Assembly (NCBI GenBank): GCA_964613815.1 | Contig: CAZTKG010000005.1 | Coordinates: 22,026 to 86,025 of the forward strand | From: an uncultured Gammaproteobacteria bacterium | GTDB lineage: Bacteria > Patescibacteriota > Patescibacteriia > UBA9934 | Reading direction: 5' to 3' | Length of the DNA: 64,000 nt | Shown: positions 4,101 to 43,757 of the stretch, in pieces | Position numbering within the stretch: position 1 is the stretch's first letter | Layout: each line of letters starts with the position of its first letter | The notes under the pieces: generated by a model | What the model was told of the DNA's origin: nothing | The model's input: the letters and a program-made list of their open reading frames with translations, nothing else | Databases searched by the model: none | Position numbers and translations under genes: made by a program

Positions 4101-4176
4101 GTATTTAATGGCTTACTTTTTCGCTTCATTCCCCATCCTGAGGAAGAGAGATCCTGCTCTCTGACGGAAGGATCTC

Positions 4177-4806: not shown

Positions 4807-4825
4807 TTCGAGTCCTCTGCTATTA

Positions 4826-4879: not shown

Positions 4880-5014
4880 GCAAACGTCGCTTCGCTCCCC
4901 AGAGGGGCTTCTGCCCCTATGGCGCCCCTTGTTTGATTTTAGCTGAGGGCTGTCACCCCCGGCATGCAGGGGGATGCTCCCCCTACCACCCCCTGGTTCG
5001 AGATCCTCGTGTAC

Positions 5015-5068
5015 GCCCACCAAAAACACCCAGCCGGAGCTGGGTGTTTTTGGTGGGCGTGAGAGGAC
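5015..5068. repeat. Direct repeat 2 of 2 (overlaps tRNA-Val 3' end and its bidirectional terminator)
   Basis: Same 54-bp module as 4826-4879. GCCCACCAAAAACACCCAGC/GCTGGGTGTTTTTGGTGGGC forms a 20-bp-stem hairpin. Confidence 0.55.
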
Positions 5069-5127
5069 TCGAACCTCTGACTTCCACAATGTCAATGTGA
5101 CGCTCTAACCAACTGAGCTACACGCCC
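5051..5127 (-). tRNA. tRNA-Val (anticodon GAC)
   Basis: Sense GGGCGTGTAGCTCAGTTGGTTAGAGCGTCACATTGACATTGTGGAAGTCAGAGGTTCGAGTCCTCTCACGCCCACCA. AC stem UCACA/UGUGG, loop UUGACAU. Confidence 0.8.
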
Positions 5128-21287: not shown

Positions 21288-22403
21288 ATGCGAGTTGCTC
21301 TGATTCATGATCATCTGACGCAGAATGGGGGTGCGGAGCGGGTTTTGGAGGCGTTTCAGGCCATGTGGCCGGAGGCGCCTACTTTTACGCTTTTGTATGA
21401 TTCTCGGACGATGGATGAGACGTTTGGGCACCGGGATATTCGGCCCTCTGTGTTGCAGCGGATGCCGCTTTCGCTTCGGCGGCCTCGGTGGTATTTGCCG
21501 CTGATGCCTGTTGCGACGGAGAACTATGACTTGCGGAATTTTGATGTGATTGTTTCTAGCTCTAGTTCGTTTTCGAAGGGGGTTGTGCCGGGGAGTGATG
21601 CGATTCATGTTTGTTATTGTCACACGCCGACGCGGTATCTTTGGTCAGATACGCATAGCTACGTAAAGGACTTGCGGGCGCCGAAGATACTGAAGCGGGC
21701 GCTTCCTCCGCTTTTGAGTCGGCTTCGGGTTTGGGATCATAATGCAGCGCAGCGCGTTGATAACTTTATTGCGAATTCGGAGACGGTGCGGCGGCGGATT
21801 ACGAAGTATTATCAGCGGGAAAGTGATGTGATTCATCCGCCGGTTGATATTGATCAATTTCATCTTTCGCATAAGCCTAAAGAATATTACTTGATTGGGG
21901 GACGGCTGGTTTCTTATAAGCGATATGACTTGGTGATTGAGGCTTTTAATAAACTTCGACTGCCTTTGAAGGTGTTTGGGAGTGGGCCTGAGCAGATGCG
22001 GCTTCGGGCGATGGCTGGGTCGAATGTGCAGTTTTTGGGACGGGTCTCGAATGAGGAACGCGCTCGACTTTTTGCGGATGCGATTGCGTTTTTGAATCCT
22101 CAAGAGGAGGACTTTGGGATTACGCCGGTGGAATCGATGGCTGCCGGGCGGCCGGTGATTGCTTATCGGCGCGGAGGCGCCACGGAGACCGTGGTTGATA
22201 GTGTGAGTGGAATGCTTTTTGAGGAGCAGTCTTGGGAGGAGATTGCGGCTACGGTCTTACAGATGCAGAAGATGACGTTTGATCCGGAGCGGATTCGGGC
22301 GCATGCGGAGCAGTTTTCGCTGCAGAATTTTCATGAGAAGATGCGGAATTATGTTTCTGGGGCTTGGCAGGAGCATCAGCGGAAGGTCCTTGGGGAGATT
22401 TGA
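21288..22403 (+). CDS. Glycosyltransferase family 4
   Basis: GT-B fold with the Glycos_transf_1-like C-terminal domain (EDFGITPVESMAAGRPVIAY). Confidence 0.8.
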   Translation: MRVALIHDHLTQNGGAERVLEAFQAMWPEAPTFTLLYDSRTMDETFGHRDIRPSVLQRMPLSLRRPRWYLPLMPVATENYDLRNFDVIVSSSSSFSKGVVPGSDAIHVCYCHTPTRYLWSDTHSYVKDLRAPKILKRALPPLLSRLRVWDHNAAQRVDNFIANSETVRRRITKYYQRESDVIHPPVDIDQFHLSHKPKEYYLIGGRLVSYKRYDLVIEAFNKLRLPLKVFGSGPEQMRLRAMAGSNVQFLGRVSNEERARLFADAIAFLNPQEEDFGITPVESMAAGRPVIAYRRGGATETVVDSVSGMLFEEQSWEEIAATVLQMQKMTFDPERIRAHAEQFSLQNFHEKMRNYVSGAWQEHQRKVLGEI

Positions 22404-22406
22404 TGT

Positions 22407-23474
22407 ATGCGGATCGCTATTGATGTTCGGCATTTGACGCATCCGAATCCTTCCGGCGTTGGGAGATATACGATTCATTTGGTGGAGGAATTGATTGCTG
22501 CGTATCCGCAAGATACGTGGATTTTGTTTTGTGCAGGAGGTCGGAAGACTCGGGATCGACTTCCCTGTTTTGATCATCGACGTGCTGTGATTGTCCCTGT
22601 GCCAATCATGAATCGGATCCTGTATGGCGTATTGAGGTCTGGTTTTAATGTTGCGCTTGAGGATTTTTTGCCGATTCAGCCGGATGCTTGGTTGTTTCCG
22701 GACTTGAATGTTGTGCGGACTCGGCTTCCCTACTGTTTGACCGTGCATGATGCTGCGACTTCGATTATTCCTTCGTATTTTCCTCGGAAATCGCTTGCGA
22801 AGTTTCGGAGTGCGGGGTATCGGGATTTAGTTTGTGGTGCCGATAAGGTTTTGGCGGTTTCTGAGAGCACGGCGGTTGATGTGGGAGATCTATTTGGGGT
22901 GGAGCGGGAACGGATTGTTGTTGCTCCGCCGATTGTTCGTGTGGGCGATCGACGCGTTTTTGATCGCGGTAATAATTATATTCTGTCGCTTGGGACGCTT
23001 GAGCCTCGGAAGAATGTTGATGGGTTGATTGAGGCCTATGGGCTCTGGCGGGATCGCGGTGGGGATGCTCGGCTTGTGATTGCAGGGGGTGATGGGTGGA
23101 AGATGGGAGCTATTCGCAGAGCACTTGCGGCGTCTGTTTATCGGGATGATATTGAGCTTGTTGGGTTTGTTTCTGAGGAAGATAAGGATGTGCTGATATC
23201 TGGCGCTCGGTGCCTTGTGTTTGCGAGCTTTTATGAGGGGTTTGGTATGCCGGTTTTGGAGGCTTTGATGCGCGGGGTCCCGGTGATAACAGGTGCGCAT
23301 AGCTCTCTGTGTGAGCAATTTGGTGATCAGGCTGTTTTCGTCGATTCGTTTACTGTTTCTGATGTTTTGATGGCGCTAGATATCACCATGAGTACACAAT
23401 TTACCCACAGGCAAAAAGATGTGGATCAAAAATCTGTTCATGCGACGTATTTAGCCCTAAAATCTGTGCTATAA
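22407..23474 (+). CDS. Glycosyltransferase family 4
   Basis: Retaining GT4-type C-terminal motif (FYEGFGMPVLEALMRGVPVI). Confidence 0.8.
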   Translation: MRIAIDVRHLTHPNPSGVGRYTIHLVEELIAAYPQDTWILFCAGGRKTRDRLPCFDHRRAVIVPVPIMNRILYGVLRSGFNVALEDFLPIQPDAWLFPDLNVVRTRLPYCLTVHDAATSIIPSYFPRKSLAKFRSAGYRDLVCGADKVLAVSESTAVDVGDLFGVERERIVVAPPIVRVGDRRVFDRGNNYILSLGTLEPRKNVDGLIEAYGLWRDRGGDARLVIAGGDGWKMGAIRRALAASVYRDDIELVGFVSEEDKDVLISGARCLVFASFYEGFGMPVLEALMRGVPVITGAHSSLCEQFGDQAVFVDSFTVSDVLMALDITMSTQFTHRQKDVDQKSVHATYLALKSVL

Positions 23475-23481
23475 TTTAGGC

Positions 23482-24618
23482 ATGCGTATTGGAATTGATG
23501 CCAGGTTTTATGGCCCACGTGTTGGAGGTGGCGGCATTGGAAGATATGTCGAAGAACTTGTTACGCATTTACAGCTCATTGATACGAAAAATACGTACGT
23601 TCTGTTTTTGAAAAAAGAGAATTTTCATGAGTGCGTCATTCGAAATCCCCTTTTTTCTAAGCAGCTTCTGGATGTTCACTGGTATGGACTTCGTGAGCAG
23701 CGAGAGGTTCCGCGCGCGGTTCGCGATGCTCGTCTGGACTTTGTCCATTATCCGCACTGGAATGTTCCGCTCTTCAGCCGCGTTCCGTTTATTGTCACGA
23801 TTCATGACTTGATCCTGCTTGAGGACAGGCATTCGGCTCGCGTGAGCAGCAAAAGCCCTATTTTGCACGGATTCAAATATGCTGGGTTTCGGACTGTCTT
23901 GGAGCGTGCCGTACATAAAAGCCGACATATTCTCACCGTTTCTGCGTACAGTAAAGAATCTATCGTGCGACACTTTCGTGTTCCTCGGAACAAGATCACC
24001 ACCATTCCTAACGGCGTTATTACTCGCGTTTCTGATCGCGATATCAGTCTTTCAAAACTTGGCGTGTACGATCCGTACTTCCTGTACGTAGGCAATGCTT
24101 ACCCGCATAAAAATCTTGAGATGATGATGCATGCATTTGCGCGGTTTTCCGAGCAAAATGATCATGTTCAACTTGTCATCGCCGGACGTAGAGATGTGTT
24201 TTCTCGCCAACTTGAAGCCGAAGCTCGTGATATTGGACTTCGCAAGGGAGCTGTTCGGTTCTTGGACCTTCCCTCTGATGACGAGATCTCTACGCTTTAC
24301 CAACATGCAAAGCTGTTCGTCTTCCCTTCTCGCATCGAAGGGTTTGGCATCCCTCCACTCGAGGCGATGGCGCACGGGACTCTTGTTGCTGCCGCTCGCG
24401 CCGCAAGCTTACCCGAGGTCTTGCGCGAATGCGCTCTGTATTTTGACCCTCATGATGTTGAAGGACTTGCAGAAATCATGCAACGCTCGCTCAGTAGCTC
24501 GCGCTTATTTGCAAAGAAAATCGAAGATGGCAAGCGCCTGAGTGCGTCCTACCGATGGTCTGATGCAGCTCGAAAGACCCTTGATGTGTATCAACGATTC
24601 CCTATTTTAAAACGTTAG
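23482..24618 (+). CDS. Glycosyltransferase family 4
   Basis: C-terminal motif EGFGIPPLEAMAHGTLV. Confidence 0.8.
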   Translation: MRIGIDARFYGPRVGGGGIGRYVEELVTHLQLIDTKNTYVLFLKKENFHECVIRNPLFSKQLLDVHWYGLREQREVPRAVRDARLDFVHYPHWNVPLFSRVPFIVTIHDLILLEDRHSARVSSKSPILHGFKYAGFRTVLERAVHKSRHILTVSAYSKESIVRHFRVPRNKITTIPNGVITRVSDRDISLSKLGVYDPYFLYVGNAYPHKNLEMMMHAFARFSEQNDHVQLVIAGRRDVFSRQLEAEARDIGLRKGAVRFLDLPSDDEISTLYQHAKLFVFPSRIEGFGIPPLEAMAHGTLVAAARAASLPEVLRECALYFDPHDVEGLAEIMQRSLSSSRLFAKKIEDGKRLSASYRWSDAARKTLDVYQRFPILKR

Positions 24619-24623
24619 ACCCC

Positions 24624-27149
24624 ATGGCTCGAAAGGAGAACATCTCTATCTCTTTGAACGGCGCTGATGAGCGTGCGGATTTTGATACTGCGCTACCGGT
24701 TTCTCTTGCCTCCAAAACCGGAGAAGCTCTTGAAAAAAAGATTGTCCCACGGACCTCTGTCGAGCCTGAACTTTCTCCGTATGTCATCCACCTTTCGCAC
24801 GATGAAGAAATTGGAGGTCTCAATCGTGCCCGCGCCCTTCTTGACGAGCTCGATCTTCCAGAAGATTTTGATGAAGTCTCGTTGATCGAAGAAGACCCGC
24901 TTCTTGTTACCCGAGCCGATCTGGCCTCGCAGCTTCGAGAACCCGATGTGCACCTCCGATCTATTGAGCCAGCTACTGCCAAGTCTTTGGATGATTTTGA
25001 CTTAGACGTCCCTCAGTTTGCTCCCCATGAATGGGACTCTGAAGAGATCCATCTCTCTCTTGCCGCGGACTCCCTGCACGACGAAAGCCCCTTAGAACCC
25101 ACCGAGACGCTCCATGAAGAGCGCGCTCCTCGACGTAGATGGGTACGATTTCGATTTGGAGAAGCTAAACATCGAGCGGTTGCGGCCTTTACTATTTTAT
25201 CCTTTTCTCTTGTCGCGCCTCTTCATGCGATGCAAGGACTTGTGAAGGTCAATGATGCTCCAGCTCAGGTTATGGAAACCAGCAGCTTGGCTATTGATAA
25301 TTTCCTGCGCGGCGCTCATGCGCTTGAAGATGATCGATTCGCTGTTGCGAGTGCAGATTTTGATCGCGCTAGCGAAGCGTTTGCAGGCGCCGATGAGGAG
25401 CTTAATGAATTACGTGGCGTACTTCTGACTGCGCTTCGTCTGATCCCACAGACAAAGAAGACACATGACTCTGTTCGAGGGCTCTTGGGAGCTGGTCAGA
25501 ATCTCTCACTTGCTGCAGCGAACATGTCTGAAGCTGGCAACTCCATTCTTTCTGAAGAATCTACTGACCTGGTGACGAAACTGCATTTACTCGATGCCTA
25601 TGTAAGCTCTTCCCTACCGCATGTGCAAGAGGCGGAGATTTCCCTTGCCTCCGTTGACCCAGATGTTATTCCTGATGATCAGCGAGAACAAGTTGCTCTG
25701 CTTTTAGAAAAAACTCCACAGCTTGCTCGAAGTATGGAAGAGTTTCGGGAGTTTTCTGATGCGTTAAAAACTGTTTTAGGTGATGACCGGAAGATGCGTT
25801 ACTTGGTTGCGTTCCAGAATAATGCAGAGATCCGTCCTACTGGGGGTTTTATTGGGAGCTTTGCGGAGATCGATGTTTATGAAGGCGAAATTGTTGGCGT
25901 GACGATTCCTGAGGGCGGCACGTATGATCTTCAAGGTCAGCTATCTGCGTTTGTTGCTGCACCTGAACCTATGCAGCTCATCAATCCTCGATGGGAGTTT
26001 CATGATTCTAATTGGTTTCCTGATTTTCCTACATCTGCCGAAAAACTTCTCTGGTTTTACGAGAAAGCTGGTGGACCTACCGTTGATGGCGTCATTGCGA
26101 TTAACGCGACTTTGATGCCTGAGCTCTTGGGAGTCCTTGGAGAAGTTGAGATGCCAGAATATGGACGCACGATTGATCGTGAGAACTTCTTGTTTGAAAC
26201 GCAGAAGATCGTTGAGCACGAATATGAACAGTATACGGATGCTGATGATGAACGAGAGGAAGATGCTCCTAAGAAATTTATTGGAGACCTTGCACCGAAG
26301 CTACTTGAGCGAATGAAGGAGACCAATTTAGATCAGTCGTTAGCGCTTTTGGAAATTTTGAGCTCGGCGCTTTTGGAAAAAGACACGATGCTTTACTTCC
26401 GCGACAATGCGCTTCAATCCGACATGCAGAAGCTTGGGTGGACCGGTGAAATGAAACAAGCCCCTCAGGATGCGCTAATGATTGTGAATACGAACCTTGG
26501 AGGGAAGAAAACTGACACCGTGATTGATCAAGAGATTGATCTGGACGTTTCTATTTCTGACGACGGCCGAATCGTGAATACGCTTCGGATAACTAAGAAT
26601 CATCGCGGGCTCTCTTCTCATATTTTTGAAGGAGAGAATAACGTTGACTACCTTCGTGTGTATGTTCCTGAGGGGAGCACCCTCTTGCATGCTGAAGGAT
26701 TTGAAATTCCCGATGAGGACCTATTTGATGAGAGTGACTTGATTTTGACGCCTGATGAAGACCTGACGCTGTTGATGCAAAACACTTCTCAGCATGACGA
26801 GAGCGGTACTGATATTTGGGACGAGCAAGGGCGCACTGTTTTTGGAAACTGGATTCAGACGAAGCCTGGCGAAATGGAGACTATTGAATTTGTCTATGAA
26901 CTTCCGTTTACTGTTGAAATGCCGAGTGAAGCCCCTTCCCTCTTAGAGATTGCAAAGGCTCGTGTCGGGCTCCGTCACTTGAGTGAATACAGTCTGTTCA
27001 TCCAGAAGCAACCCGGTGTCTTGGAACGCGAAACGCGTGTACGGCTCCATCTTCCTGAAGGCTCTAATGTCGCCTGGCAGTCTCGCGAAGGAAGCAGCGT
27101 GGACAATGATCGGGATGCGTTCCTTCAGTACATTTTGGAGCATAAATAA
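24624..27149 (+). CDS. Large DUF4012-like protein (841 aa), N-terminal TM anchor, polysaccharide-locus associated
   Basis: Contains FQNNAEIRPTGGFIGSFAEID, which I recall as the DUF4012 hallmark; this is a recollection, not a search result. It sits after three GT genes. Confidence 0.5.
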   Translation: MARKENISISLNGADERADFDTALPVSLASKTGEALEKKIVPRTSVEPELSPYVIHLSHDEEIGGLNRARALLDELDLPEDFDEVSLIEEDPLLVTRADLASQLREPDVHLRSIEPATAKSLDDFDLDVPQFAPHEWDSEEIHLSLAADSLHDESPLEPTETLHEERAPRRRWVRFRFGEAKHRAVAAFTILSFSLVAPLHAMQGLVKVNDAPAQVMETSSLAIDNFLRGAHALEDDRFAVASADFDRASEAFAGADEELNELRGVLLTALRLIPQTKKTHDSVRGLLGAGQNLSLAAANMSEAGNSILSEESTDLVTKLHLLDAYVSSSLPHVQEAEISLASVDPDVIPDDQREQVALLLEKTPQLARSMEEFREFSDALKTVLGDDRKMRYLVAFQNNAEIRPTGGFIGSFAEIDVYEGEIVGVTIPEGGTYDLQGQLSAFVAAPEPMQLINPRWEFHDSNWFPDFPTSAEKLLWFYEKAGGPTVDGVIAINATLMPELLGVLGEVEMPEYGRTIDRENFLFETQKIVEHEYEQYTDADDEREEDAPKKFIGDLAPKLLERMKETNLDQSLALLEILSSALLEKDTMLYFRDNALQSDMQKLGWTGEMKQAPQDALMIVNTNLGGKKTDTVIDQEIDLDVSISDDGRIVNTLRITKNHRGLSSHIFEGENNVDYLRVYVPEGSTLLHAEGFEIPDEDLFDESDLILTPDEDLTLLMQNTSQHDESGTDIWDEQGRTVFGNWIQTKPGEMETIEFVYELPFTVEMPSEAPSLLEIAKARVGLRHLSEYSLFIQKQPGVLERETRVRLHLPEGSNVAWQSREGSSVDNDRDAFLQYILEHK

Positions 27150-27193
27150 ATTGAGACCTTGAATCTTGGTCTCGTAGCATTGTTATTTTTTGT

Positions 27194-29197
27194 ATGGCCA
27201 AACATCATGGTCACAGTAAACATCATAGAGCCGCGAATAAGAAGAAGCGCGCGCATCAAGACGAGGATCACGAAGAGCGTGATGATGATTTTGAAGATGA
27301 CGAAGACGAGGTCACTATTGAAGAAGAAGTTGATGCTGACGAGGTAGATGCTCAGGATGAGGTCGATGATGAGATTGATGCACTTGAGGATGGCGAGGAA
27401 TATACGGTTGAGGAGGAAAAAGTCTTGATGAAAGAGGGTCTTGAGGCTATCTATGGACGCGGGAGAAAGAAGGTAAATTTTTCTCAGCTTGATAAGGTTA
27501 ACCATGGACTCACCGGTGCCTTGAAGACTATTGTTTTTACGCTTGCTGCTGTTGCCATCGCTGCCTGGGGTGGGTTCTTTGTTTATAATAAGTATCTTTT
27601 GAACGTGACAGATGAGATGCTCATCATCGAGATTGAGGCTGATTCGGAAATCGTTAGTGGAGAAGAGACGTCTGTTGTGATCGACTATCGTAATGTCGCC
27701 ACGATCCCCCTTGCCTCTTTGGCGTTTGAGGTTCATCTTCCTGACGGGTTTGAAGTTGTGTCTTTTGACCCTGAGCCTACCGACGCTGAGAATTTGACTT
27801 GGACTATTGGCACTATGACTGCCGGGTCTGATGGCGCTATTCAAATTGAAGGGGTTTGGTATGCTGATACCCCTTCTTCTACGTCGATTCAGGCGCTGGC
27901 AAATTATCGACCCAGTAACTTTAATTCTGATTTTCAGGAGATAGAGACCGTTTCTGTTTCTACACTTTCCAGCGTACTTTCGATGGAGATTGAGGGACCT
28001 GAGGATATCGTTCCTGGTGAGGATGGAGAATATACACTTGCTGTGCGCACCGATAGTGAAGAGAGCGTGCGAGATATCGAGGTTGAGGTTGCGCTTCCTG
28101 AGGGGTTTTATATTGACTCTAGTGACCCTGCACCGCTTGAGGAGGGGGCGGCTCATTGGGGAATTGAGCGTGTGAGCGCAGATCATCCGATTGAGATTTC
28201 TTTTGTCGGATCGTTTGCGAGTGATATTTCTGGGTTCCAGTATTTTGATGCTGATGTTGGTGTTGTGCGTGGGGATGAGGTGTATACGCAGGCTTCTGGT
28301 CAGGGGTTTACCGATGTTTTGACGAGCAATCTTTCGATTCAGCTTGTGGTGAATGGGAGCACGAATGATACGACGCTTGAGGTTGGGGATCGGATTCGGG
28401 TGAGTGTGGCAGTGATGAATACCGGGGAAAGTGCGATTGAGAATCCTTCGCTTTTGGTTGATTTTCAGTCGGATGAACCGATGCCGATTAATTGGGGGGA
28501 TGCGAGTTTGGATGGTGGAGTGATTACGAGTGATGGGATTGTGCTCACGAATGAGGAGACGGAGGCGATTGAGGTTGGTGAGAAGCGGACATGGAATTTA
28601 ACGTTCCCTACGCGGTCAGAGGTTCAGGATGGAGAGGTTGATCGCTTCCCTGTTGTCGCTGTGGTGGAGAATGGGGATGTGCAGGCACGGTCTCAGACGG
28701 TGGAGATTAGTTTTAACACAGAGGCCGATCTGTCTGCAGGAGCTCGGTATTACAATGATGACGGGGCGCCACTTGGGTCTGGGCCGCTTCCGCCTACGGT
28801 TGGCGAGGTGACGACGTATCACGTGTATTGGTCGGTGAAGAATTCACTGCACGATCTTGAGGACGTGCGGGTGAGTGCAGTTTTGCCTGGGGATGTTGAT
28901 TGGGATGAGGGTGCTGTGGCGGATATTGGGGACGTTGCGTTTGATGAGGGGTCTCGGACGGTGACTTGGACCATCTCGGCACTTTCTGAGGAATTGACCA
29001 GTGTTGGGGCGAGTTTTGCGGTGTCTTTGACGCCAGATGAGAGTGATATTGATACGTTTGTGAAGTTGATTTCTGGAAGTAGTTTGCAGGGGACGGATGT
29101 GGTTACGGAGGCGCTTGTGCAGGATACGACGGAAGCGCTGACGACGGAGCTGCCGGATGATGGGTATGTTGAGGATCGGGGGATTGTGGTTGAGTAG
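27194..29197 (+). CDS. Surface protein: His/acidic N-terminus, single TM, then multiple beta-rich repeat domains (CARDB/DUF11-like)
   Basis: 667 aa. The N-terminus MAKHHGHSKHHRAANKKKRAHQDEDHEERDDDFEDDEDE is followed by a TM helix and repeated ~100-aa modules with recurring motifs (LPxGF...PxP, VxxxNTGxS). Confidence 0.55.
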   Translation: MAKHHGHSKHHRAANKKKRAHQDEDHEERDDDFEDDEDEVTIEEEVDADEVDAQDEVDDEIDALEDGEEYTVEEEKVLMKEGLEAIYGRGRKKVNFSQLDKVNHGLTGALKTIVFTLAAVAIAAWGGFFVYNKYLLNVTDEMLIIEIEADSEIVSGEETSVVIDYRNVATIPLASLAFEVHLPDGFEVVSFDPEPTDAENLTWTIGTMTAGSDGAIQIEGVWYADTPSSTSIQALANYRPSNFNSDFQEIETVSVSTLSSVLSMEIEGPEDIVPGEDGEYTLAVRTDSEESVRDIEVEVALPEGFYIDSSDPAPLEEGAAHWGIERVSADHPIEISFVGSFASDISGFQYFDADVGVVRGDEVYTQASGQGFTDVLTSNLSIQLVVNGSTNDTTLEVGDRIRVSVAVMNTGESAIENPSLLVDFQSDEPMPINWGDASLDGGVITSDGIVLTNEETEAIEVGEKRTWNLTFPTRSEVQDGEVDRFPVVAVVENGDVQARSQTVEISFNTEADLSAGARYYNDDGAPLGSGPLPPTVGEVTTYHVYWSVKNSLHDLEDVRVSAVLPGDVDWDEGAVADIGDVAFDEGSRTVTWTISALSEELTSVGASFAVSLTPDESDIDTFVKLISGSSLQGTDVVTEALVQDTTEALTTELPDDGYVEDRGIVVE

Positions 29198-29420
29198 TTG
29201 GGTTGGTGAGGGGTTTTGATCTTTGAGGCGTGATGAAAATTGGCTATTTTTCGCCAATTTTTTATGTTTTGGAACCACTTATGCGACGACCGTGAGAAAA
29301 GAGGTTCTTTTTTTGTTCAATGGAGTGCATCGTCATGTTCTGATTTTTTGCCCAAACTCCCTGTTTTTTGTTGTTTTTGACCATAAATATGCTACCATGT
29401 AGCTACCTCGGAATGAAGAG

Positions 29421-29605
29421 GGGGTGGTCAGCTATGTGCAAGCTCTTGCACTCATAGCGGAACGACTCTGAGCGTAGGCTATGCCTACAGGAGGTGAAGG
29501 CTATGTGCCTGCTCGTGTGCTGACCTACACGGAAAACTTCAACCCACAACGGAACGAAAGGTTCTAAAGGAGGTGGTCAGCGTGTGCAAGCTCGTGCAGT
29601 GATAA
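29421..29605 (+). repeat. Tandem array of three SD+mini-ORF units (MCKLLHS 29434-29457; MCLLVC 29503-29523; MCKLVQ with GTG start 29582-29602), each followed by a CCTACA/TGTAGG-type hairpin
   Basis: GGAGGTG is repeated three times 8-9 nt upstream of ATGTGC/GTGTGC. The palindrome GTGCAAGCTCTTGCAC lies inside unit 1. Confidence 0.4.
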
Positions 29606-29807
29606 ACTGTAGGTGTTTACACCGACCCTGTACATTGAGACACCTGGGCAATCGTGCCCTTGCAGAGACCAAAAATCTCGGACCGGTCGCCCAACATGCG
29701 TGTCACGTGGCCTTCAAAACGCCCCAAGATGCGCTGAGGTACGCCCCATGTCCCTAGGATCCCCTTGCTCATCACCATGCTCGGCATGTGTGCTCTGACG
29801 GGGATCT

Positions 29808-30746
29808 TTACTTTCTGGCTTTTCTTCCTAGTTTGTAGAGCCAATACCAGATGTGCTTCTGTTGGAGATCGAATGTCCCTGGGGACTCGATGATTTCTCC
29901 GCCGAAGCCTTTTTTGTATCTTGAAATACCTGTCCAGGCATGCGAGACGTCGGAATGTCTTGGAGCGATGCCCCAGAAATCGAAGGCTGTGAGACCTTGT
30001 TTTTTTGCGTCTTTAATGAGGAACCAGTGAAGGGCGTATTGCGGCATCGTGTTTCGGTGGAGGTTGCTGGTGGCGCCGTGGAGGTAGGTTCTTGTGCCTT
30101 GGAAATCTAGGATGATGTTTGCGGCGAGGGGGCGGTCTTCGTAGAAGGCCATGGCGAGGGATGCTTTTGCCTCCCCTGCTTTGAGGTTGTGGAGCATGGT
30201 GCGGTAGTAGACTTCTGCGTGTGGCGTGAAGCTGTCTCGGTTTGATGTTTGGTCGAGTAGGCGTGCAAAGTCGTCGAAGTGCGATGCGTCTACGATGCGG
30301 CATGATACGCCTTTTCGTTCGGCGAGGCGGATGTTGTAGCGCGTTTTTGCCTTCATGGAGGCGAGAAGGTCTTTTTCTGATGGGGTGATGTTTACTATTG
30401 TCGTCGTACTTGGCTGGACGTCTTTGACCTTTGGGAGAGTTGATTCTGCTGCAGGTTCTAGGCGGAAGAACATGGCGTCTAGGAGGTGTTCTCGGAGGCT
30501 TGAGATCATGCGTTCTTGGGGCATGTTGCCGAGCGGGCCTTTTGGGATGTACCAGTAGAACTGACCCATTGGGAGCGGCATCTTGATTGCTTGCGCGACG
30601 ATTTCTGTTTCTCCTTCTTTTTGATGGATGCGCTCTACCCTTTTGCCTGTTTGACGTTGAAACTCTCCCCATTCGAAGGACTGCAAAAACGCTCCGGATT
30701 TGGGAGCGTGTTTTTGGACGAGCTTGTTCCAAGCTTGGCTTTCCAT
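29808..30746 (-). CDS. FemAB-family aminoacyltransferase-like protein (peptidoglycan interpeptide bridge formation)
   Basis: 312 aa, with general similarity of length, composition and motifs to the FemAB/FemX family. Assignment is tentative. Confidence 0.5.
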   Translation of the reverse strand: MESQAWNKLVQKHAPKSGAFLQSFEWGEFQRQTGKRVERIHQKEGETEIVAQAIKMPLPMGQFYWYIPKGPLGNMPQERMISSLREHLLDAMFFRLEPAAESTLPKVKDVQPSTTTIVNITPSEKDLLASMKAKTRYNIRLAERKGVSCRIVDASHFDDFARLLDQTSNRDSFTPHAEVYYRTMLHNLKAGEAKASLAMAFYEDRPLAANIILDFQGTRTYLHGATSNLHRNTMPQYALHWFLIKDAKKQGLTAFDFWGIAPRHSDVSHAWTGISRYKKGFGGEIIESPGTFDLQQKHIWYWLYKLGRKARK

Positions 30747-30755
30747 GGGTTGATT

Positions 30756-31298
30756 TTATGCTGAAAGCTGTTTTAACGCCAGCCTAATACGCTCCTCTTC
30801 TGAACCTTCGGGAATTATTGATAGGGCCGCTGCCGCGTCTTGTCTTGCGTAGCCGAGTCCTGTGAGCATTTCGATGAGGTCGCCGTCTTGAGATGACTCC
30901 CCTACCTCGATGACGAGAACACCTTGGAGTTCGAGGACGATTTTTTGTGCGGTCTTTTTTCCAACTCCTGACACTCCCTGCAGAATTGCGACGTCCCCTC
31001 TTGCGATTCCATCCCTGATTCTATTGCCGTGGTTTGCCTGCATGATTTTGAGCGCCATTTTTGGACCGACGCCTGAGATGTCGATGAGGCGCTTGAACAT
31101 TGCGAGGGACCCTTTTGATGATGCGCCGAAGAGTTCTCGGCGGTCTTCGCGGATGAAGTCGAAGATGTGCAACTCTACGGCATCGCCAAGTTCAAATGCC
31201 CCGTCTAGTGTGTAGACTTGGTATCCGATCCCTCCTGCGAGGACGACGATTGAATCTTGTTGGATTGTGTGAACTGTTCCTGTGATAAAGGCGATCAT
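30756..31298 (-). CDS. ruvA: Holliday junction DNA helicase RuvA
   Basis: MIAFITGTV...GIGYQV...GVGPKMALKI...GVGKKTAQKIVLEL: the OB fold and two HhH motifs. The likely start is at 31298 (listed ORF to 31349). Confidence 0.85.
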   Translation of the reverse strand: MIAFITGTVHTIQQDSIVVLAGGIGYQVYTLDGAFELGDAVELHIFDFIREDRRELFGASSKGSLAMFKRLIDISGVGPKMALKIMQANHGNRIRDGIARGDVAILQGVSGVGKKTAQKIVLELQGVLVIEVGESSQDGDLIEMLTGLGYARQDAAAALSIIPEGSEEERIRLALKQLSA

Positions 31299-31311
31299 AT
31301 TCGCCATGTTC

Positions 31312-32475
31312 TCATGCTGCGTTTGAATGGTCAAAATGCATTCTCGCAACCTCTACTCTACGCCTTATTTCTGCCTCGTTTTTTCCAAAGCTCTGCCTTG
31401 CATGCCCCTTTGTGATCAAGCTCTTTATCGCACTCATCACCTCCCCTCTCTTTGGTCCGTGTGGTGTTTTGAGCAAGCTGAATACGTCGTCGGCTGCAAG
31501 GCCGCTTTTTCTCATTATCTCTTTGAGATGCTTTCTTTTCTTTAGATCTACTGACTCCTGCCTTGCCTCTCTTCTTTCTGGCATGCCGTGCTCTTCTGCG
31601 CGCCAGATGTTTTTTATTGATTCCCAGTTTGTTTTTGTTTCTCCGTCTTGGCATTCCAATGCCCCTATCATCTCCAAAAAAACAACGGCGGTCATGAGAT
31701 CAAGTGCATGATGTGTGTCTAACCCCCGCTTTCCTGCACGCGCCGCCAATACTTCCCACGCTTCTTTGTCAGCAGTCTTCCCCATTATTTTTCCTATGTC
31801 TTCGTGATGCACGATGAGCCATGTGAGTATGTCTTGATCTGTGCTTGAGAGGCGATGCATATCGGAGATCTCTTTGGTCTCTTGCGTTCTCCCTGCTGAC
31901 TTTTTGGCGTAGCCCTCGTCATTCACTTCTATCTCGTATACATCGAAGAAATGAATATCTGATTTTCCTGTTTTAATTTTGTGTGCTTTTTTTAACTTTT
32001 TGTAAAGCGCTGTTGCATCTGCGTCTGCGTTCATGAACCCCTCAGCCTCCCCTTTTGATCCTGCTATGCAGGTGAACCTGAGCACCTCTGCCTTTCCTAG
32101 GTCATGCAATGCGATGAATGCTGAGAGTATTTCTTTGTGCTCGATGATTGTTTCGCGGAGATAGTGCATGTCTGTCTGGAAGTGCGTGTCTTGAGCCACC
32201 TCTTCAATACGAAAAAAATCCTCTTCGGAGACGATTTTGTTTAGCCCTCCTTGCATTCGCGTAACATGATCCATCACTTCCCCGCCCTCCGCATGATGTG
32301 GTGGAGACTGCGGCACTCCAGCCAACACCCTTCTTGTTGCCTCTGGCATCTGATCGGGTCTGCAGCTCGCGATCCAATCACGAAATGCGATGAGCTGCTT
32401 TGATTTTTTTGTGTGTGCACGGCTCCACATAATAACGATATGTACGAGATTTTCTTGATCAAAATTGGTTGACAA
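31312..32475 (-). CDS. HD-domain phosphohydrolase-like protein (387 aa)
   Basis: H...HDLGK and HHED motifs spaced like an HD superfamily metal site; otherwise unrecognised. Confidence 0.45.
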   Translation of the reverse strand: MSTNFDQENLVHIVIMWSRAHTKKSKQLIAFRDWIASCRPDQMPEATRRVLAGVPQSPPHHAEGGEVMDHVTRMQGGLNKIVSEEDFFRIEEVAQDTHFQTDMHYLRETIIEHKEILSAFIALHDLGKAEVLRFTCIAGSKGEAEGFMNADADATALYKKLKKAHKIKTGKSDIHFFDVYEIEVNDEGYAKKSAGRTQETKEISDMHRLSSTDQDILTWLIVHHEDIGKIMGKTADKEAWEVLAARAGKRGLDTHHALDLMTAVVFLEMIGALECQDGETKTNWESIKNIWRAEEHGMPERREARQESVDLKKRKHLKEIMRKSGLAADDVFSLLKTPHGPKRGEVMSAIKSLITKGHARQSFGKNEAEIRRRVEVARMHFDHSNAA

Positions 32476-32806
32476 GCTTTTGTTCGCGTGCCATACTCCA
32501 AATGCTCCCTAGAGCCTTGTAACCTCTCCCGAATGGAAGGGTTGGCCTTATGCCTTCCCACTCGTCAGACGAACTGACATTACCCATTAGGAGGAAAACA
32601 TCATGGGGACCATGTAACCTAGAAGGTTCGGATTGCGTAGCTGATCAGATTTCCTGAAACGCACGCCGTCTGTGTTGTAAGACGCCTTTCGAACCACGAG
32701 CAGGGAAGGAGGTACTCCCTTGCTCACGCGCACGTCCACCAACCCGTTCTTTACCCCCTCTTCCCCGGTGACACACCGATCCACTCTGGTGCTGTTGCTG
32801 GGCTTT

Positions 32807-33556
32807 TTATTTTTTCGGCTTTTCTGCGGACTCCCAGGCTTGGTTGAAGACGGCCCGCATGGTGTCGGCGAAGATTTCGTTTTCGATAATGACGACTTCG
32901 ATGTCGCCTACGAGCATGACGTATGCGATTCGGTTTTTGTAGACCCAGATGTTTCCTTTGAAATCTGAGAACTTCTGATCTAGCTTTCGGAATGTTGCTC
33001 CTGGGTGGACGTTCCGCAATGTTCCTGCGAAGAGTGAACGCGCTTTGATGTTTTTGAATCCTTCTAGGCGGCGGAGTTGGAGTAGGACCTTTTCGTTTAG
33101 TGTTTCGTAGACGATGTCTGCGTTTCCGACCTCTAGCAACTCCTTTACGTTGAGAGAATGCACGTCACGGAAAAGTGCTCGAACTCCCTCTTCACCTTGG
33201 TAGAACCGTACGCGTGGGTTGTCTCCTCCGTGCATGACTCGCAGTTCTGGTACGAGTCGTTTGAGCGTTCCTAGCTGCCCCTTCATTTGCGTCAGACGCC
33301 CCTTGAAGTAGCTCTGCAAGTTGTCTGGATCCTCAACTGAGAACATGGTCTTCTTTCCTTTTTGGAAGGTGCTTGTAAGCCCCTTCTTTTGCAATGAACC
33401 GATGAGTTCGTATGCGGCAGTTCGTGATACGCCGGACTTTTTTGCAATGTTCTGAACACTGTTTGGTCCAAGCTTTAGCATTGCTAAATACACGCGTGTC
33501 TCGGTCTCTGAGAGGCCAAGATCTGTGAGAACTTGTTTGATGTTGCTTTGTGACAT
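32807..33556 (-). CDS. TrmB-family transcriptional regulator (N-terminal wHTH)
   Basis: The N-terminus LGLSETETRVYLAMLKLGPNSVQNIAKKSGVSRTAAYELIGSLQKKGL is typical of TrmB-like sugar regulators. Confidence 0.6.
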   Translation of the reverse strand: MSQSNIKQVLTDLGLSETETRVYLAMLKLGPNSVQNIAKKSGVSRTAAYELIGSLQKKGLTSTFQKGKKTMFSVEDPDNLQSYFKGRLTQMKGQLGTLKRLVPELRVMHGGDNPRVRFYQGEEGVRALFRDVHSLNVKELLEVGNADIVYETLNEKVLLQLRRLEGFKNIKARSLFAGTLRNVHPGATFRKLDQKFSDFKGNIWVYKNRIAYVMLVGDIEVVIIENEIFADTMRAVFNQAWESAEKPKK

Positions 33557-33572
33557 ATAAAATTTGTTACCC

Positions 33573-34400
33573 TTATTCTACAATGACTTTTAGGATTTCG
33601 TCTACGGTTGGCGCTTTTCCTTGCTTTGATAGGATGCCCCAGCACCTTCCGCCTCCGAAGGTGAATCCTCCGAATTGTTCGTGGAGTTTTGATGCTTGAT
33701 TTGTGTTTTGCACGTACGCTTTTTGATTTCCCTGCGTGATGATGGAGACTGGGATCTTCTCGTGCGCCTCATGGATGAGGTAGGATAGCGCGTCTCTGAT
33801 GCTGATGTCTGGTTGGTCTGAACGGAGGATGAGGATGCCATTTGCATCTTTTTTTGATTGCCAGACCCTCTGTGCCTCTGTCTCTTCTTGATCACAGATC
33901 TCGCCCCTCACTTCCCTTCTTAGGGACCTGTAGTGGAGGATGATTTCTTTTTCTTTTTGCGTGGAGAAACCTTCTTGCTTTAGCTCTCCCAGGAACCCCC
34001 TGTCCATTGCCGCGATTCCTTTTATGATGTCTGGATCGAATCCGGCGGTTTTGATCTCTTCTTCTCTGATTTGGAAAACATTCAGGAATTGCTCGAGGGA
34101 GCTCTCTGGCTTCATTCGGCTTATGTCTTCGTATTCGTGATGGTCGATAATGTGGAGTGTGTAGCCGGCGGTTTTGATTTCTTCCTCGATGCTTGGGCCT
34201 GGCATTTCCACGATAGCGACCTCTTTTGTTTCTGAGTCTGCGCTCTTGATGCGAGAGATGATGTCGGGCTCGTTTTCTAGCCTGGCTCCGTGAGGCTGGG
34301 ATGAGACGATTGTTTTGATATTGAATGCCTCAGCGAGCCTGATGATGGTGAGGGATTCTTCGTCGTTTTTTGGGCAGACGAGGATGATGTTGCTATTCAT
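33573..34400 (-). CDS. Hypothetical protein with IIDHH motif (possible phosphoesterase); overlaps the ileS stop by 8 bp
   Basis: The listed ORF extends to 34571 inside ileS. The start is likely MNSNIILVC at 34400. Confidence 0.4.
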   Translation of the reverse strand: MNSNIILVCPKNDEESLTIIRLAEAFNIKTIVSSQPHGARLENEPDIISRIKSADSETKEVAIVEMPGPSIEEEIKTAGYTLHIIDHHEYEDISRMKPESSLEQFLNVFQIREEEIKTAGFDPDIIKGIAAMDRGFLGELKQEGFSTQKEKEIILHYRSLRREVRGEICDQEETEAQRVWQSKKDANGILILRSDQPDISIRDALSYLIHEAHEKIPVSIITQGNQKAYVQNTNQASKLHEQFGGFTFGGGRCWGILSKQGKAPTVDEILKVIVE

Positions 34401-37287
34401 ATGAGATACCGATCCAGATTTCTTGCTCGTTTGTTTTGATTGTCTTTTCGATCTTTGCGCTTCCCTTCTCTTGGGTGAGTGACGATGCGAGCGTTGCTGA
34501 CTTGATTGCCCCTGCGTGCTCTGTGAGCATTGTTTTGACGTCTTCTGACTCTGATGTGATGAAGAGATCAACCTTTGTTTGGATGGTTAGATTAGCTTCT
34601 TTGCGGAGCTGGTTGATCTTTCTCGCGACGTCTCTAGCCATGCCTTCTCGTGTGAGCTCTGGTGTTAGTTCTAGGTCTACCTCAACGGCGATGTCGCCTT
34701 TTGCTAGTGACATTGACTTGATGTTTAGCTCGTCTAGGATGACTTGCTTTATTTGCTCGGTCATCCCTCCTGATGGGAGCGTGACCCTTAGGGATGCGAG
34801 CGGTTGTTTGATCGGGATCCCTGCTGACTCGCGGACTTCTAGAGCTCGGCTGACGATGGCTCGAGCCTCTCCCATGGCGTCTAGGATTTCTTGATTGATA
34901 GCGCCTGCTTCTGGCCAGGATTCTAGGTGGACGGATAGGCGTGTGTTTTGATCTTTGAAGTTGCCGTTTACGCCTTGGTAGAGCACCTCTGCCATAAATG
35001 GCATGCACGGGGCTAACATGTGCGCGAAAAGATCCAGCACGGATTTTAGTGTTGCGATTGCCTCCTGCTTATCTTCGCCTTCTGACTTCATTCGGTCTCT
35101 GGATCGGCGGATGTACCAGGTGGAGAGATCTGTTGCGAAGGCTTGAAGTGGGCGCATAGCGGACATGATGTCGTAGCGTTCTAGTGCCTCGGTTTGGGTT
35201 GATAGGGTTTGGTTTGCTCGGGATGTGATCCAGGCGTCTAGTGGGTGCGCGAGTGATGGCGCTCGGTTGTCGCCTGATGCGGCGTGCAGCTTGTAGAAGG
35301 CTAGGACGTTTCTTGTGATTCGGATGAATTTCTTTGCGACTTCTTCTACGCCTTTTTCGCTAAAGCGAAGGTTTTCTGCTTTTACGGCTGGAGATGCCAT
35401 GAGGTAATAGCGCATGGCGTCGGAGCCGTGTTTTTCGATGAGGTTGGTGATGTCTGGGTAGTTTTTGAGGCGCTTGGACATCTTCTTTCCGTCTTCTGCG
35501 AGGACGATGCCGTTCACTGCCACGTTTTTGAAGGCAGGCATGTCGAAGAGGGCGTTTGCGAGGACGTGGAGAGTGTAGAACCATCCGCGGGTTTGGTCTT
35601 GGCCTTCTGCAATGAATTCTGCTGGGAAGCCTCCTTGGAATTTATCTTTGTTTTCGAATGGGTAGTGGAACTGCGCGTATGGCATTGAGCCTGATTCGAA
35701 CCAGCAGTCCAGGACTTCTGGAATGCGGGTGAACTCTTTGCCGTCTTTTTTGATAACGATGTTGTCGACGATGTGCTTGTGGAGATCGTCTACTTTTTGT
35801 CCTGATAGGGTTTCGAGCTCTTCTTGGGAGCCGATGCAGATGATGTCACCGTCTTCTGCGCGCCAGATTGGGAGTGGTGTCCCCCAGTAGCGAGAGCGAG
35901 AGATAGCCCAGTCGCGGGCGCCTTCTAGCCATTTTCCGAAGCGGCCTTCTTTGATGTTTTCTGGGACCCAGTTGATTTCTTTGTTTGTTGCGATGAGACG
36001 GTCTTTGAGGTCTGTGACGCGAACGAACCACGAAGCTGTGGCGTAGTTGAGGAGCGGCGTGTCACAGCGCCAGCAGTGTGGGTAGCTGTGTTCTACTTTT
36101 TCTTTTCTGAAGAGGCGGTCGTTGTGCGCGAGGTATTTTACGATTTCGATGTCTACTGACTGAGTGTCTCCTTTTTGTTTGACTGGCTTGTCTTTTACGT
36201 TGTAGCCAGCCTCCTGTAGAGGATCTGCTACTTCTGGCGCGAAGTGACCGTTGAAGCCTACGTGCATGATAGGGTCTAGACCTTCTGCTTGGGTTAGCTG
36301 AACGTCATCTGCGCCGAAGCCTCCGGCGATGTGGACGATTCCTGTGCCGTCTGATTCTGAGACGAAGTCTGCGCCCTTGATTGTGAAAGCGCCTGCAGTA
36401 TCTTTGTAGAATGGGAACAGTGGCTCGTAGGTTGCGCCGACGAGGTCTGATCCTTTTATGGTTTTGGTGATTTGATGGTCCTTGCCTTCGAAGACGTCTT
36501 TTGCGAGGTCGGCGTGGACGATGTAGTCGGCGCCTTCTGATGAGACGACTGCGTAACTTCCCTGCGGGAGGACGGCTGCGAGCATGTTTCCTGGGAGAGT
36601 CCAGGGAGTTGTGGTCCAGGCTATTAATGCTGCGTTTTGATAATCACCGCTTGTGATTGGGAGTGTGACGTAGACGGAGATGTCTTTGACGTCTTGATAG
36701 CCTTGGGCGACTTCGAAGTTTGAGAGGACGGTTTCGCAGCGGGGGCAGACGTGCATTGGTTTGCGGCCCTCGTAGATAAGTCCTTTGTCCCATAAAGATT
36801 TGAAGACCCACCAGGTGGACTCCATGTATGAGAGGTCCATTGTTTTGTAATCTCTCTCCATGTCGACCCAGCGGCCAAGGCGGCGGACAATGCGCTTCCA
36901 GTCTGCTTCGTAGCGCATGACTTCTGCGTGACAGGCTTCGTTGAATTTGTCGACGCCGAAATTTTCGATCGCGGCTTTTGATCCGAGGTCGTGCTTTTTT
37001 TCTACGATGTTTTCAATTGGGAGACCGTGACAGTCCCAGCCCCATTTTCGTTCGACTCGGTAGCCCTTCATGGTGAAGAAGCGTGGCATGACGTCTTTCA
37101 TGACACCTGGGAGGACGTGACCGTAGTGTGGGAGTCCTGTTGCAAATGGGGGGCCGTCGTAGAAGACGTATGGATTCCCTTCTGGTCTTTGGTTGATGGA
37201 TTTTTGGAAAATCTGATGTTCATCCCAGTATTCTAGGACTTCTAGCTCGTCATCAACGTGTGATTTCTGCTTGGTTTTGTCTGGCAT
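34393..37287 (-). CDS. ileS: Isoleucyl-tRNA synthetase
   Basis: 964 aa with HYGH and KMSKR motifs and the class I editing domain. Confidence 0.95.
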   Translation of the reverse strand: MPDKTKQKSHVDDELEVLEYWDEHQIFQKSINQRPEGNPYVFYDGPPFATGLPHYGHVLPGVMKDVMPRFFTMKGYRVERKWGWDCHGLPIENIVEKKHDLGSKAAIENFGVDKFNEACHAEVMRYEADWKRIVRRLGRWVDMERDYKTMDLSYMESTWWVFKSLWDKGLIYEGRKPMHVCPRCETVLSNFEVAQGYQDVKDISVYVTLPITSGDYQNAALIAWTTTPWTLPGNMLAAVLPQGSYAVVSSEGADYIVHADLAKDVFEGKDHQITKTIKGSDLVGATYEPLFPFYKDTAGAFTIKGADFVSESDGTGIVHIAGGFGADDVQLTQAEGLDPIMHVGFNGHFAPEVADPLQEAGYNVKDKPVKQKGDTQSVDIEIVKYLAHNDRLFRKEKVEHSYPHCWRCDTPLLNYATASWFVRVTDLKDRLIATNKEINWVPENIKEGRFGKWLEGARDWAISRSRYWGTPLPIWRAEDGDIICIGSQEELETLSGQKVDDLHKHIVDNIVIKKDGKEFTRIPEVLDCWFESGSMPYAQFHYPFENKDKFQGGFPAEFIAEGQDQTRGWFYTLHVLANALFDMPAFKNVAVNGIVLAEDGKKMSKRLKNYPDITNLIEKHGSDAMRYYLMASPAVKAENLRFSEKGVEEVAKKFIRITRNVLAFYKLHAASGDNRAPSLAHPLDAWITSRANQTLSTQTEALERYDIMSAMRPLQAFATDLSTWYIRRSRDRMKSEGEDKQEAIATLKSVLDLFAHMLAPCMPFMAEVLYQGVNGNFKDQNTRLSVHLESWPEAGAINQEILDAMGEARAIVSRALEVRESAGIPIKQPLASLRVTLPSGGMTEQIKQVILDELNIKSMSLAKGDIAVEVDLELTPELTREGMARDVARKINQLRKEANLTIQTKVDLFITSESEDVKTMLTEHAGAIKSATLASSLTQEKGSAKIEKTIKTNEQEIWIGISYE

Positions 37288-39414: not shown

Positions 39415-39499
39415 TCTCCCCTGCCCCATCTCGACCTTGTGGAGAGATCTTGCCTTTTTGATGTCCGCAGAGATCTCTCCACAAGGTCGAGATGGGAAT
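39415..39499. repeat. Palindromic intergenic element, copy C (long hairpin form, perfect 26-bp arms, 18-nt loop)
   Basis: CCCATCTCGACCTTGTGGAGAGATCT-tgcctttttgatgtccgc-AGAGATCTCTCCACAAGGTCGAGATGGG. Confidence 0.6.
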
Positions 39500-39523
39500 T
39501 TTGAGTTTGATATACTACTTGCA

Positions 39524-41824: not shown

Positions 41825-41909
41825 CTTCCCTGCCCCATCTCGACCTTGTGGAGAGATCTTGCCTTTTTGATGATCGCGGAGATCTCTCCACTTCGGTCGA
41901 GATGGGAAT
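41825..41909. repeat. Palindromic intergenic element, copy D
   Basis: CTTCCCTGCCCCATCTCGACCTTGTGGAGAGATCT...AGATCTCTCCACTTCGGTCGAGATGGGAAT. The arms differ at TTGT versus GAAG. Confidence 0.6.
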
Positions 41910-43672: not shown

Positions 43673-43757
43673 TCCAACCTTCCCCTGACTGAGACTCGCC
43701 CTCCCCCGAAGACGAACTCGCCGGGGTGTTTTTTTATTGATGTTATAATGAGCACAT

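Follow-up and report, generated by a model that had tools for sequence, protein, structure and literature searches.

Minigenes are frames of just a few codons that immediately follow a strong Shine-Dalgarno (SD) sequence and make no protein of their own; the effects described for them arise from translation itself, through peptidyl-tRNA drop-off, tRNA sequestration or an influence on a neighbouring cistron (PMC2490762, PMC8708949, PMC3262186). Minigenes of 3-8 codons act through peptidyl-tRNA accumulation (PMC2490762), and a minigene that regulates its neighbouring gene has been described (PMC8708949). We here analysed a 64-kb stretch of contig CAZTKG010000005.1, from an uncultured member of the Patescibacteriota, which we call the window throughout and whose numbering we use. 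On its plus strand, at 29409-29607, the spacer between a surface-protein gene and a convergent FemAB-like gene carries an array of three tandem modules, each composed of CGGAAYGA, a strong SD, a start codon 6-7 nt further on and a closed frame of 6-7 codons. The three modules are copies of one ancestral module, and our tentative reading is that they form a lineage-specific, triplicated ribosome-binding-site (RBS) module in a hypervariable accessory slot.

Anatomy and relatedness of the three units

The units of the array were delimited as follows.

29409-29457, plus strand: unit 1, with CGGAATGA, the SD GGGGGTG at 29420-26, ATG at 29434, the frame MCKLLHS and the stop TAG at 29455-57
29458-29549, plus strand: unit 2, with CGGAACGA, the SD GGAGGTG at 29490-96, ATG at 29503, the frame MCLLVC and the stop TGA at 29521-23
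29550-29607, plus strand: unit 3, with CGGAACGA, the SD AAAGGAGGTG at 29566-75 (GGAGGTG at 29569-75), GTG at 29582, the frame MCKLVQ and the stops TGA TAA at 29600-05

The three tandem units and their frames had been described in an initial annotation of this DNA, and a reading of the sequence confirmed both, with corrections of detail. The arrangement is indeed tandem, but the unit length of ~50-70 bp did not hold, since the units measured from 29409 are 49, 92 and ~56-58 nt long, unit 2 being enlarged by insertions of 23 and 26 nt. The GGAGGTG ascribed to every unit is present in units 2 and 3, whereas unit 1 has GGGGGTG, which would still pair with the anti-SD through one G-U pair. A hairpin was said to follow every unit; it was found after unit 1 only (GTAGGC/GCCTAC), units 2 and 3 retaining single arms (CCTACA at 29524-29 and TGTAGG at 29608-13). 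The 23-nt insert of unit 2 holds the hairpin GTAGGC-TAT-GCCTAC, and its 26-nt tail combines CCTACA with CGGAAAAC. The supposed perfect palindrome of unit 1, GTGCAAGCTCTTGCAC at 29436-51, turned out to be a 7+7 inverted repeat around CT, which would place the start codon inside a hairpin. Likewise, the overlapping open reading frame (ORF) given as 29 aa is one of 28 aa, from ATG 29481 to a stop at 29565-67.

The mini-frames are truly closed, because TGA is a genuine stop in this genome, where it ends 14 of the 44 genes; an alternative code with read-through of UGA was rejected for the same reason. While the main frame stays at 6-7 codons in all three units, the overlapping +2 frame runs to 11, 20 and 57 codons. 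Codons 3, 5, 6 and 7 vary between the copies (AAG/CTG, TTG/GTG, CAC/TGC/CAG and TCA/TGA, respectively), and every difference is non-synonymous or alters the stop. Since the three frames show no synonymous change, nothing beyond M-C-x-L-(L/V) points to selection on the peptides, and a function of the peptides themselves found no backing. Other starts are available to the same signals: an in-frame ATG at 29413 would lengthen the unit 1 frame to MKRGWSAMCKLLHS, and the unit 3 SD also lies 8 nt 5' of a GTG at 29584, the start of an ORF of 57 aa whose codon usage is non-coding.

The repeat is beyond chance. The degenerate core RTGTGCNNGCTCKTG occurs three times, always in the array, against 0.39 occurrences expected in 64 kb, and an nhmmer profile of the unit retrieved the three copies at E 1e-9 to 2e-8, with the next best matches in the window and in relatives at E ~2-11. 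Furthermore, CGGAAYGA precedes every SD of the array, CGGAA occurs four times in 206 nt versus ~0.2 expected (p ~1e-4 by shuffling), and GGA motifs number six. The unit cores are 72-86% identical and lie at spacings of 69 and 79 nt. The three SD/start/stop sets were shown to be paralogous copies of one ancestor, later changed by insertions of 8-26 nt and by block substitutions, and as such they count as one event and not as three coincidences. No further copy of the module was detected in the window and ~18 kb of flanking contig (~82 kb in all).

To judge from their sequence, the SD sites resemble RBSs and would be unusually strong. The SD:anti-SD duplexes are predicted at -15.9, -14.6 and -16.5 kcal/mol for units 1, 2 and 3, against a median of -2.45 kcal/mol for the 44 genes, on the assumption of the generic anti-SD CACCUCCUUUCU, the 16S 3' end of this organism lying outside the window. 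Comparable combinations of a strong SD with ATG or GTG amount to 12 distinct sites in 128 kb (both strands), three of which are those of the array. GGAGG as such is frequent (197 copies on both strands), and the plus strand is the G-rich leading strand, with a positive GC skew throughout the window.

As a whole, the element does not fold clearly better than its shuffled versions (z -1.8 on the plus strand and -1.3 on the minus strand). Locally, z reached -2.3 for the unit 1 hairpin on the plus strand and -2.8 for the unit 2 region on the minus strand, and unit 3 was unremarkable (+0.7 on the minus strand). The SD and start codon of unit 1 are predicted to be mostly paired (unpaired probability 0.15 and 0.05) and those of unit 3 largely so; the unit 2 SD alone is placed in an apical loop by the prediction. 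A stem with a GCUC loop keeps 6, 5 and 4 of its 6 pairs in units 1, 2 and 3, three of the six changed pairs remaining paired.

The slot between the surface-protein and FemAB-like genes

The array had been located in an intergenic region of ~600 bp, and this was correct: the spacer measures 610 bp, from the surface-protein gene (27194-29197, plus strand) to the convergent FemAB gene (29808-30746, minus strand). Outside the array, it contains three further features.

29235-29262, plus strand: the surface-protein gene's intrinsic terminator, a 10-bp stem (GAAAATTGGC...GCCAATTTTT) with a T tract after it
29371-29405, plus strand: candidate promoter region, open to two readings, recognised by a TGnTAnnnT scan and from this genome's own promoters
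29678-29694, minus strand: weak terminator-like hairpin with a T run, downstream of FemAB

The terminator noted earlier upstream of the array is present, and it would insulate the array from upstream transcription. The TTGACC reported with it exists as well (29377-82), but the -10 that belongs to it, TAGCTA, lacks the conserved final T. We distinguished two readings of the promoter region. Reading (a) joins TTGTTT (29371-76), over 16 nt, to the extended -10 TGCTACCAT (29390-98), with a start near 29405, and fits this genome's promoter type. Reading (b) joins TTGACC, over 17 nt, to TAGCTA (29400-05), with a start near 29412-13 that would make the ATG at 29413 leaderless. A generic consensus promoter scan called neither of them upstream of the array. 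We infer that 29371-29405 is a plausible candidate promoter.

On the far side, the minus-strand terminator-like sequence at 29678-29694 intervenes between FemAB and the array, which would therefore lie outside the 3' untranslated region (UTR) of FemAB, if that signal is used. The scan of 29100-29900 gave no plus-strand terminator-like site after the array, the only such site being that of the surface-protein gene. No credible plus-strand gene follows the array either; the first confident gene beyond it, FemAB, lies on the other strand. The plus-strand ORFs at 29584-29757 (57 aa) and 29613-29798 (61 aa) have codon scores of -0.30 and -0.33, values usual for non-coding frames, where real genes average +0.26, and they gave no Pfam match and are absent from the protein collection. 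Codon usage is borderline (0.14) in a minus-strand ORF of 56 aa (29787-29620), for which a full HMMER search against 1.84 bn representatives returned five weak, multi-stretch matches to long proteins and no small-protein homologue. A hidden protein gene or pseudogene was rejected after six-frame translation, codon scoring and Pfam, with five candidate ORFs also looked up exactly, and the gene callers placed nothing in the spacer in the five assemblies fetched (L001-L005).

Two further observations concern the upstream half of the spacer. The minus strand at 29397-29389 reads TGGTAGCAT, a quasi-palindrome identical to the extended -10 upstream of the isoleucyl-tRNA synthetase gene (37287, minus strand), and it faces a Lys/Asn-rich ORF of 40 aa (29262-29384, minus strand; MVKNNKKQGVW...) whose codon score of 0.11 is borderline and which stops short of the terminator at 29235-62, itself bidirectional in appearance. 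Over the terminator region, 29226-29345 on the plus strand contains GUGAUGA and CUGA boxes and weakly matches the C/D-box snoRNA-like family Afu_264 (18.7 bits, E 0.47), probably by chance.

We then compared the locus with its relatives. Named homologues of the FemAB-like neighbour occur in Patescibacteria, Parcubacteria and Uhrbacteria, the best non-identical match being 60% identical, and no relative was found at 61-100% FemAB identity. Seven distant loci keep the order TrmB-x-RuvA-FemAB facing a CLIPPER-domain surface protein and DUF4012, and they differ in what fills the slot that separates FemAB from the surface-protein gene.

Slot in L008 and in the P0014 locus: 7-12 bp
Slot in L074: 48 bp
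Slot in L073: 274 bp, with non-coding hairpins
Slot in L071/L072: 295 bp, with one SD-led gene of 49 aa
Slot in L006: 1331 bp of higher-GC DNA, with four small genes
Slot in the window, 29198-29807: 610 bp, with the three-unit array

Neither blastn nor nhmmer detected any similarity of the window's spacer to the seven related loci, and a conserved syntenic element was rejected on that basis. The slot is a local hotspot of gain and loss, with contents unrelated between lineages. Absence of the array from all relatives, which had been set beforehand as speaking against the initial proposal, is thus what was observed at the depth available, where the nearest relatives are distant (~60% FemAB identity). 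The peptides encoded by the small slot genes of L071 and L006 are rich in Gly and His and form one family, sharing the motif I-x-GGG[FY]LQxGGH; they are 38-49 aa long, apart from a 149-aa version with a hydrophobic N-terminus.

L071:4042-4191, L072:1332-1481 and L006:4506-5220, minus strand: SD-led genes of Gly/His-rich peptides, directly downstream of the CLIPPER-domain surface-protein gene

A word-indexed search of 5.8 bn proteins brought up no other relative of the L071 peptide.

We consider the most plausible account, to be held tentatively and at less than even confidence, to be that the array is a lineage-specific triplicated RBS module in this hypervariable accessory slot, without conserved function. 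The module probably began as the 5' end of one of the small SD-led accessory genes such as relatives keep in the slot, or it may instead have arisen de novo on the G-rich leading strand. Transcription from the upstream promoter-like sequence and ribosome loading may well occur, whereas the 6-7-residue products and the array as such would have no conserved function and would represent evolutionary debris or very young sequence. As the evidence stands, the array is a single-lineage sequence oddity, with neither conservation nor a target.

Several observations weigh against the account of a triplicated module without function. The SDs of the array beat those of 43 of the 44 genes, a single gene reaching -15.3 kcal/mol, and the SD-to-start spacing has stayed within 6-7 nt. 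Unit 2 keeps its SD and ATG intact though the spacer between them has been replaced, and all four large indels lie outside the SD-to-stop segment (~78% of the unit). Behind a terminator, and 10-20 nt upstream of the array, stands a promoter-like sequence of the type that this genome uses. A gene-free spacer of 610 bp is also unusual here, the median gap being ~96 bp, and it is among the window's four longest stretches free of confident genes and RNAs; streamlined genomes tend to lose junk. The spacer shows 100% identity in five contigs of the same species, which come from separate JGI, ENA and Logan assemblies. Three of these five differ elsewhere at 2-11 positions, and because just ~1.9 differences would be expected in the spacer, its identity is not significant and says nothing on constraint. 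Finally, the same traces would be expected of a small-gene cassette that has decayed recently or is still active.

Competing readings of the array

It is possible, if doubtful, that the array is a functional minigene transcript. A plus-strand RNA of ~200-230 nt would start from the promoter at 29371-29405, its three SDs would be loaded and the Met-Cys-x-Leu frames of 6-7 codons translated, with the act of translating, and not the peptides, being what matters. The effect proposed is either to limit an antisense run into the converging femAB-ruvA operon or to sequester ribosomes and tRNAs through peptidyl-tRNA drop-off, as with lambda bar. The predicted duplexes (-14.6 to -16.5 kcal/mol versus the gene median) argue for this reading, as do the constant spacing with starts kept as ATG, ATG and GTG, the frame length conserved in contrast to the +2 frame, the large indels that spare the SD-to-stop segment, the terminator followed by the promoter-like TGCTACCAT, the share of 3 in the 12 comparable sites, and the precedents (PMC2490762, PMC8708949). 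Against it, no homologue was found among the sequences searched, neither a plus-strand gene nor a terminator follows, base-pairing is predicted for the unit 1 RBS and in part for that of unit 3, and synonymous variation between the copies is absent. Moreover, the duplex energies presuppose the generic CACCUCCUUUCU, and most genes here look leaderless or lack an SD.

A bolder version, which we regard as unlikely, is an orphan RNA of ~200 nt with three strong-SD mini-cistrons that acts in trans on translation. It could titrate 30S subunits or the 16S anti-SD tail, or lock Cys- and Leu-tRNAs as peptidyl-tRNA, and thereby shift the balance between SD-led and leaderless initiation; otherwise it could provide a translation-gated antisense into femAB-ruvA. 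An active array would amount to a stand-alone minigene or ribosome-decoy RNA that occurs naturally on a chromosome, and this would be new.

We next turn to the functions suggested in the initial annotation. An attenuator or stalling leader is disfavoured, given that no plus-strand gene follows and that there is no terminator/antiterminator pair. A sensor of Cys or tRNA availability is at odds with the codons, which comprise one Cys codon (UGC) per frame and two non-adjacent ones in unit 2, with no run. A small RNA (sRNA) with decoy SDs is likewise without support, with no Rfam match, fold z-scores of -1.3 to -2.3 and no homologues on which covariation could be assessed. None of these suggestions gained positive support, and the leader and Cys-sensor ideas fail on their defining features.

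We give little credence to an untranslated sRNA whose GGA motifs (the three CGGAAYGA, CGGAAAAC, AGGAGG and AGGGGG) bind a protein or the ribosome, as a CsrB/RsmZ-type sponge or an anti-SD decoy, with the frames being incidental. The excess of CGGAA (four copies in 206 nt), the six GGA motifs in a modular layout with variable linkers, and the GGAGG of unit 2 in a predicted apical hairpin loop are consistent with it. However, no Rfam family matched even at E 10, the hairpins are not conserved, as seen in the GCUC-loop stem with its 6, 5 and 4 pairs and half of the changed pairs lost, and one CGGAAC falls within a predicted stem and not in a loop. No homologues were found on which covariation could be judged.

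The minus strand offers another reading, which is very improbable: a long FemAB 3' UTR or an sRNA with the anti-SD-like boxes CACCUCCUUU, CACCUCCU and CACCCCCU, which could pair with mRNA SDs in the manner of RsaE/RoxS. The complement of unit 3 indeed contains CACCTCCTTT, which is the same as the generic 16S 3' end over ten bases, the minus strand has a hairpin (GCTACATGGTAGC, then ATATTTATGG) immediately downstream of the array (29403-29391), and the unit 2 region folds better on this strand (z -2.8). This is offset by the terminator-like sequence at 29694-29678 between FemAB and the array, the lack of a TGnTAnnnT promoter motif upstream of the array on this strand, a unit 3 region that folds no better than shuffles (z +0.7), and the scarcity of targets, as most genes here offer no SD.

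Least credible, and already close to refuted, is a relic of the relatives' Gly/His-rich peptide genes, for which GGAGGTGG reads Gly-Gly-Gly in one frame, like I-x-GGG[FY]LQxGGH, the slot position matches L071 (a 49-aa gene) and L006 (49, 38 and 149 aa) and tblastn weakly aligned TGGEGYV with SGGGGYL and GGQRV with GGHRL, but a profile of the four peptides gave the spacer no better a score (-2.0 bits) than shuffled sequence, the tblastn matches fall in different frames with E 0.3-3 in a database of 610 nt, and the codon usage is non-coding.

Genome context and comparison with known systems

According to the searches made, the array belongs to none of the known families tested. Rfam at gathering thresholds gave nothing between 21186 and 49321 of the window, and at E<=10 over 29150-29900 it gave noise only, the best match inside the array being the Hsp17 thermometer, whose 17.1 bits fall short of its threshold of 45 (E 3.6). 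ARAGORN called no tRNA or tmRNA at the array. Phage and plasmid collections contained nothing better than E ~0.6, and a phage or plasmid origin was rejected on this ground. In viral contigs, the pattern GGTGN{3,4}GCN{1,2}TGTGCNNGCTCNTG had 36 single matches, about the number estimated by chance. The stricter pattern beginning with GGAGGTG had 8 matches in genome contigs and 12 in metagenome contigs, all of them single and in DNA of 60-77% GC, none in tandem, and again close to the rate estimated by chance; this negative is weak and covers other organisms only, as the genome and metagenome scans missed the window's own contig. The literature on small RNAs and SD usage in the candidate phyla radiation (CPR) yielded nothing specific.

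Other classes of repeats were considered and rejected. Clustered regularly interspaced short palindromic repeats (CRISPR) do not fit cores that are just 72-86% identical at spacings of 69 and 79 nt, Tandem Repeats Finder (TRF) reported no array, and no cas-like gene was seen, whether in the gene calls that cover ~10 kb to each side or in the list of ORFs from 22000-36000. The ToxI RNA of type III toxin-antitoxin systems was dismissed since the repeats are diverged and interrupted and no plus-strand gene follows. A dispersed repeat of the type of repetitive extragenic palindromes (REP) or miniature inverted-repeat transposable elements (MITE) was rejected for want of an extra copy in the window and ~18 kb of adjoining contig, and iterons on repeat identity, spacing, copy number and neighbouring genes. 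A replication terminus or dif site at the convergent switch is contradicted by the GC skew, which is positive across the whole window. A template repeat of a diversity-generating retroelement was rejected, because the spacer is unlike the 3' end of the surface-protein gene and the gene tables contain no reverse-transcriptase-like gene.

Translation initiation in the Patescibacteria/CPR is, to our knowledge, barely studied. In this genome, most operon-first genes have no SD and start 6-9 nt past a -10 of the TATAAT type, often TGnTATAAT, which is a leaderless geometry. Examples are found at 23467-23475 (plus strand), 43741-43749 (plus) and 20472-20464 (minus), and upstream of 53869 (minus), 38510 (plus) and 49505 (plus). 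SD-like sites mostly precede operon-internal genes, and the promoters of stable RNAs have the form TTGACA-17-TAnnnT. The leaderless promoter geometry and the hypervariable slot stand whatever the array does, and the array would be chiefly useful as a cheap test case, given metatranscriptomes or closer relatives.

Several other features of the surrounding DNA were noted in passing. The 23S rRNA gene (54965-58508, minus strand) is 3544 nt long against 2925 for the model and contains a group I intron at 55479-55782; a 5S gene follows, no 16S is adjacent, and protein-sized ORFs lie upstream. A palindromic intergenic repeat of ~75-85 nt occurs at least four times in ~82 kb (~39418-39504, ~41825-41909, ~62047-62115 and L067:2895-2980); its arms CCCATCTCGACCTTGTGGAGAGATCT and AGATCTCTCCACAAGGTCGAGATGGG would make a long, near-perfect hairpin, and it resembles a MITE/REP-type element. 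Sequences of the type 'CATCCTGAG...GAAGGATC' stand beside terminators in the window (47600-47770, plus strand) and in the relative L073 (~4130-4170, minus strand), and may be a dispersed short repeat. In addition, two segments of ~75 nt at 4806-4879 and 4996-5068, ~91% identical and ~190 nt apart by the tRNA gene at 5054-5127, form a local duplication.

Finally, we set the array beside the systems that it most recalls. For its minus-strand reading only, the C-rich, SD-targeting sRNAs RsaE/RoxS are presumably a parallel, in that several CCUCC-type boxes are combined in one short RNA; the array differs from them in having no family match and in lying in a genome where most genes have no SD. With the CsrB/RsmZ-type sponges it shares the plan of a small orphan transcript, putative in the case of the array, made of repeated GGA modules with variable linkers, whereas it has no Rfam match, its GGA motifs are not consistently in loops, and the modules are only three. 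The leaders of erm, cat, cmlA and the amino-acid operons are short frames with an RBS of their own, as each frame of the array also appears to have, and hairpins involving the start region (unit 1) or the RBS of the next unit (unit 2) are leader-like as well. Unlike those leaders, the array has no downstream gene on the same strand, no alternative terminator/antiterminator, no regulatory codon run and no conservation. With the minigenes, namely lambda bar, the synthetic ones of 3-8 codons and axe-txe, the array shares the defining layout of a few-codon ORF directly behind a strong SD, a likeness that we read from sequence alone and that carries no claim of descent. Known minigenes sit within phage or operon transcripts beside the genes that they affect, whereas the array consists of three diverged copies standing alone between convergent genes.

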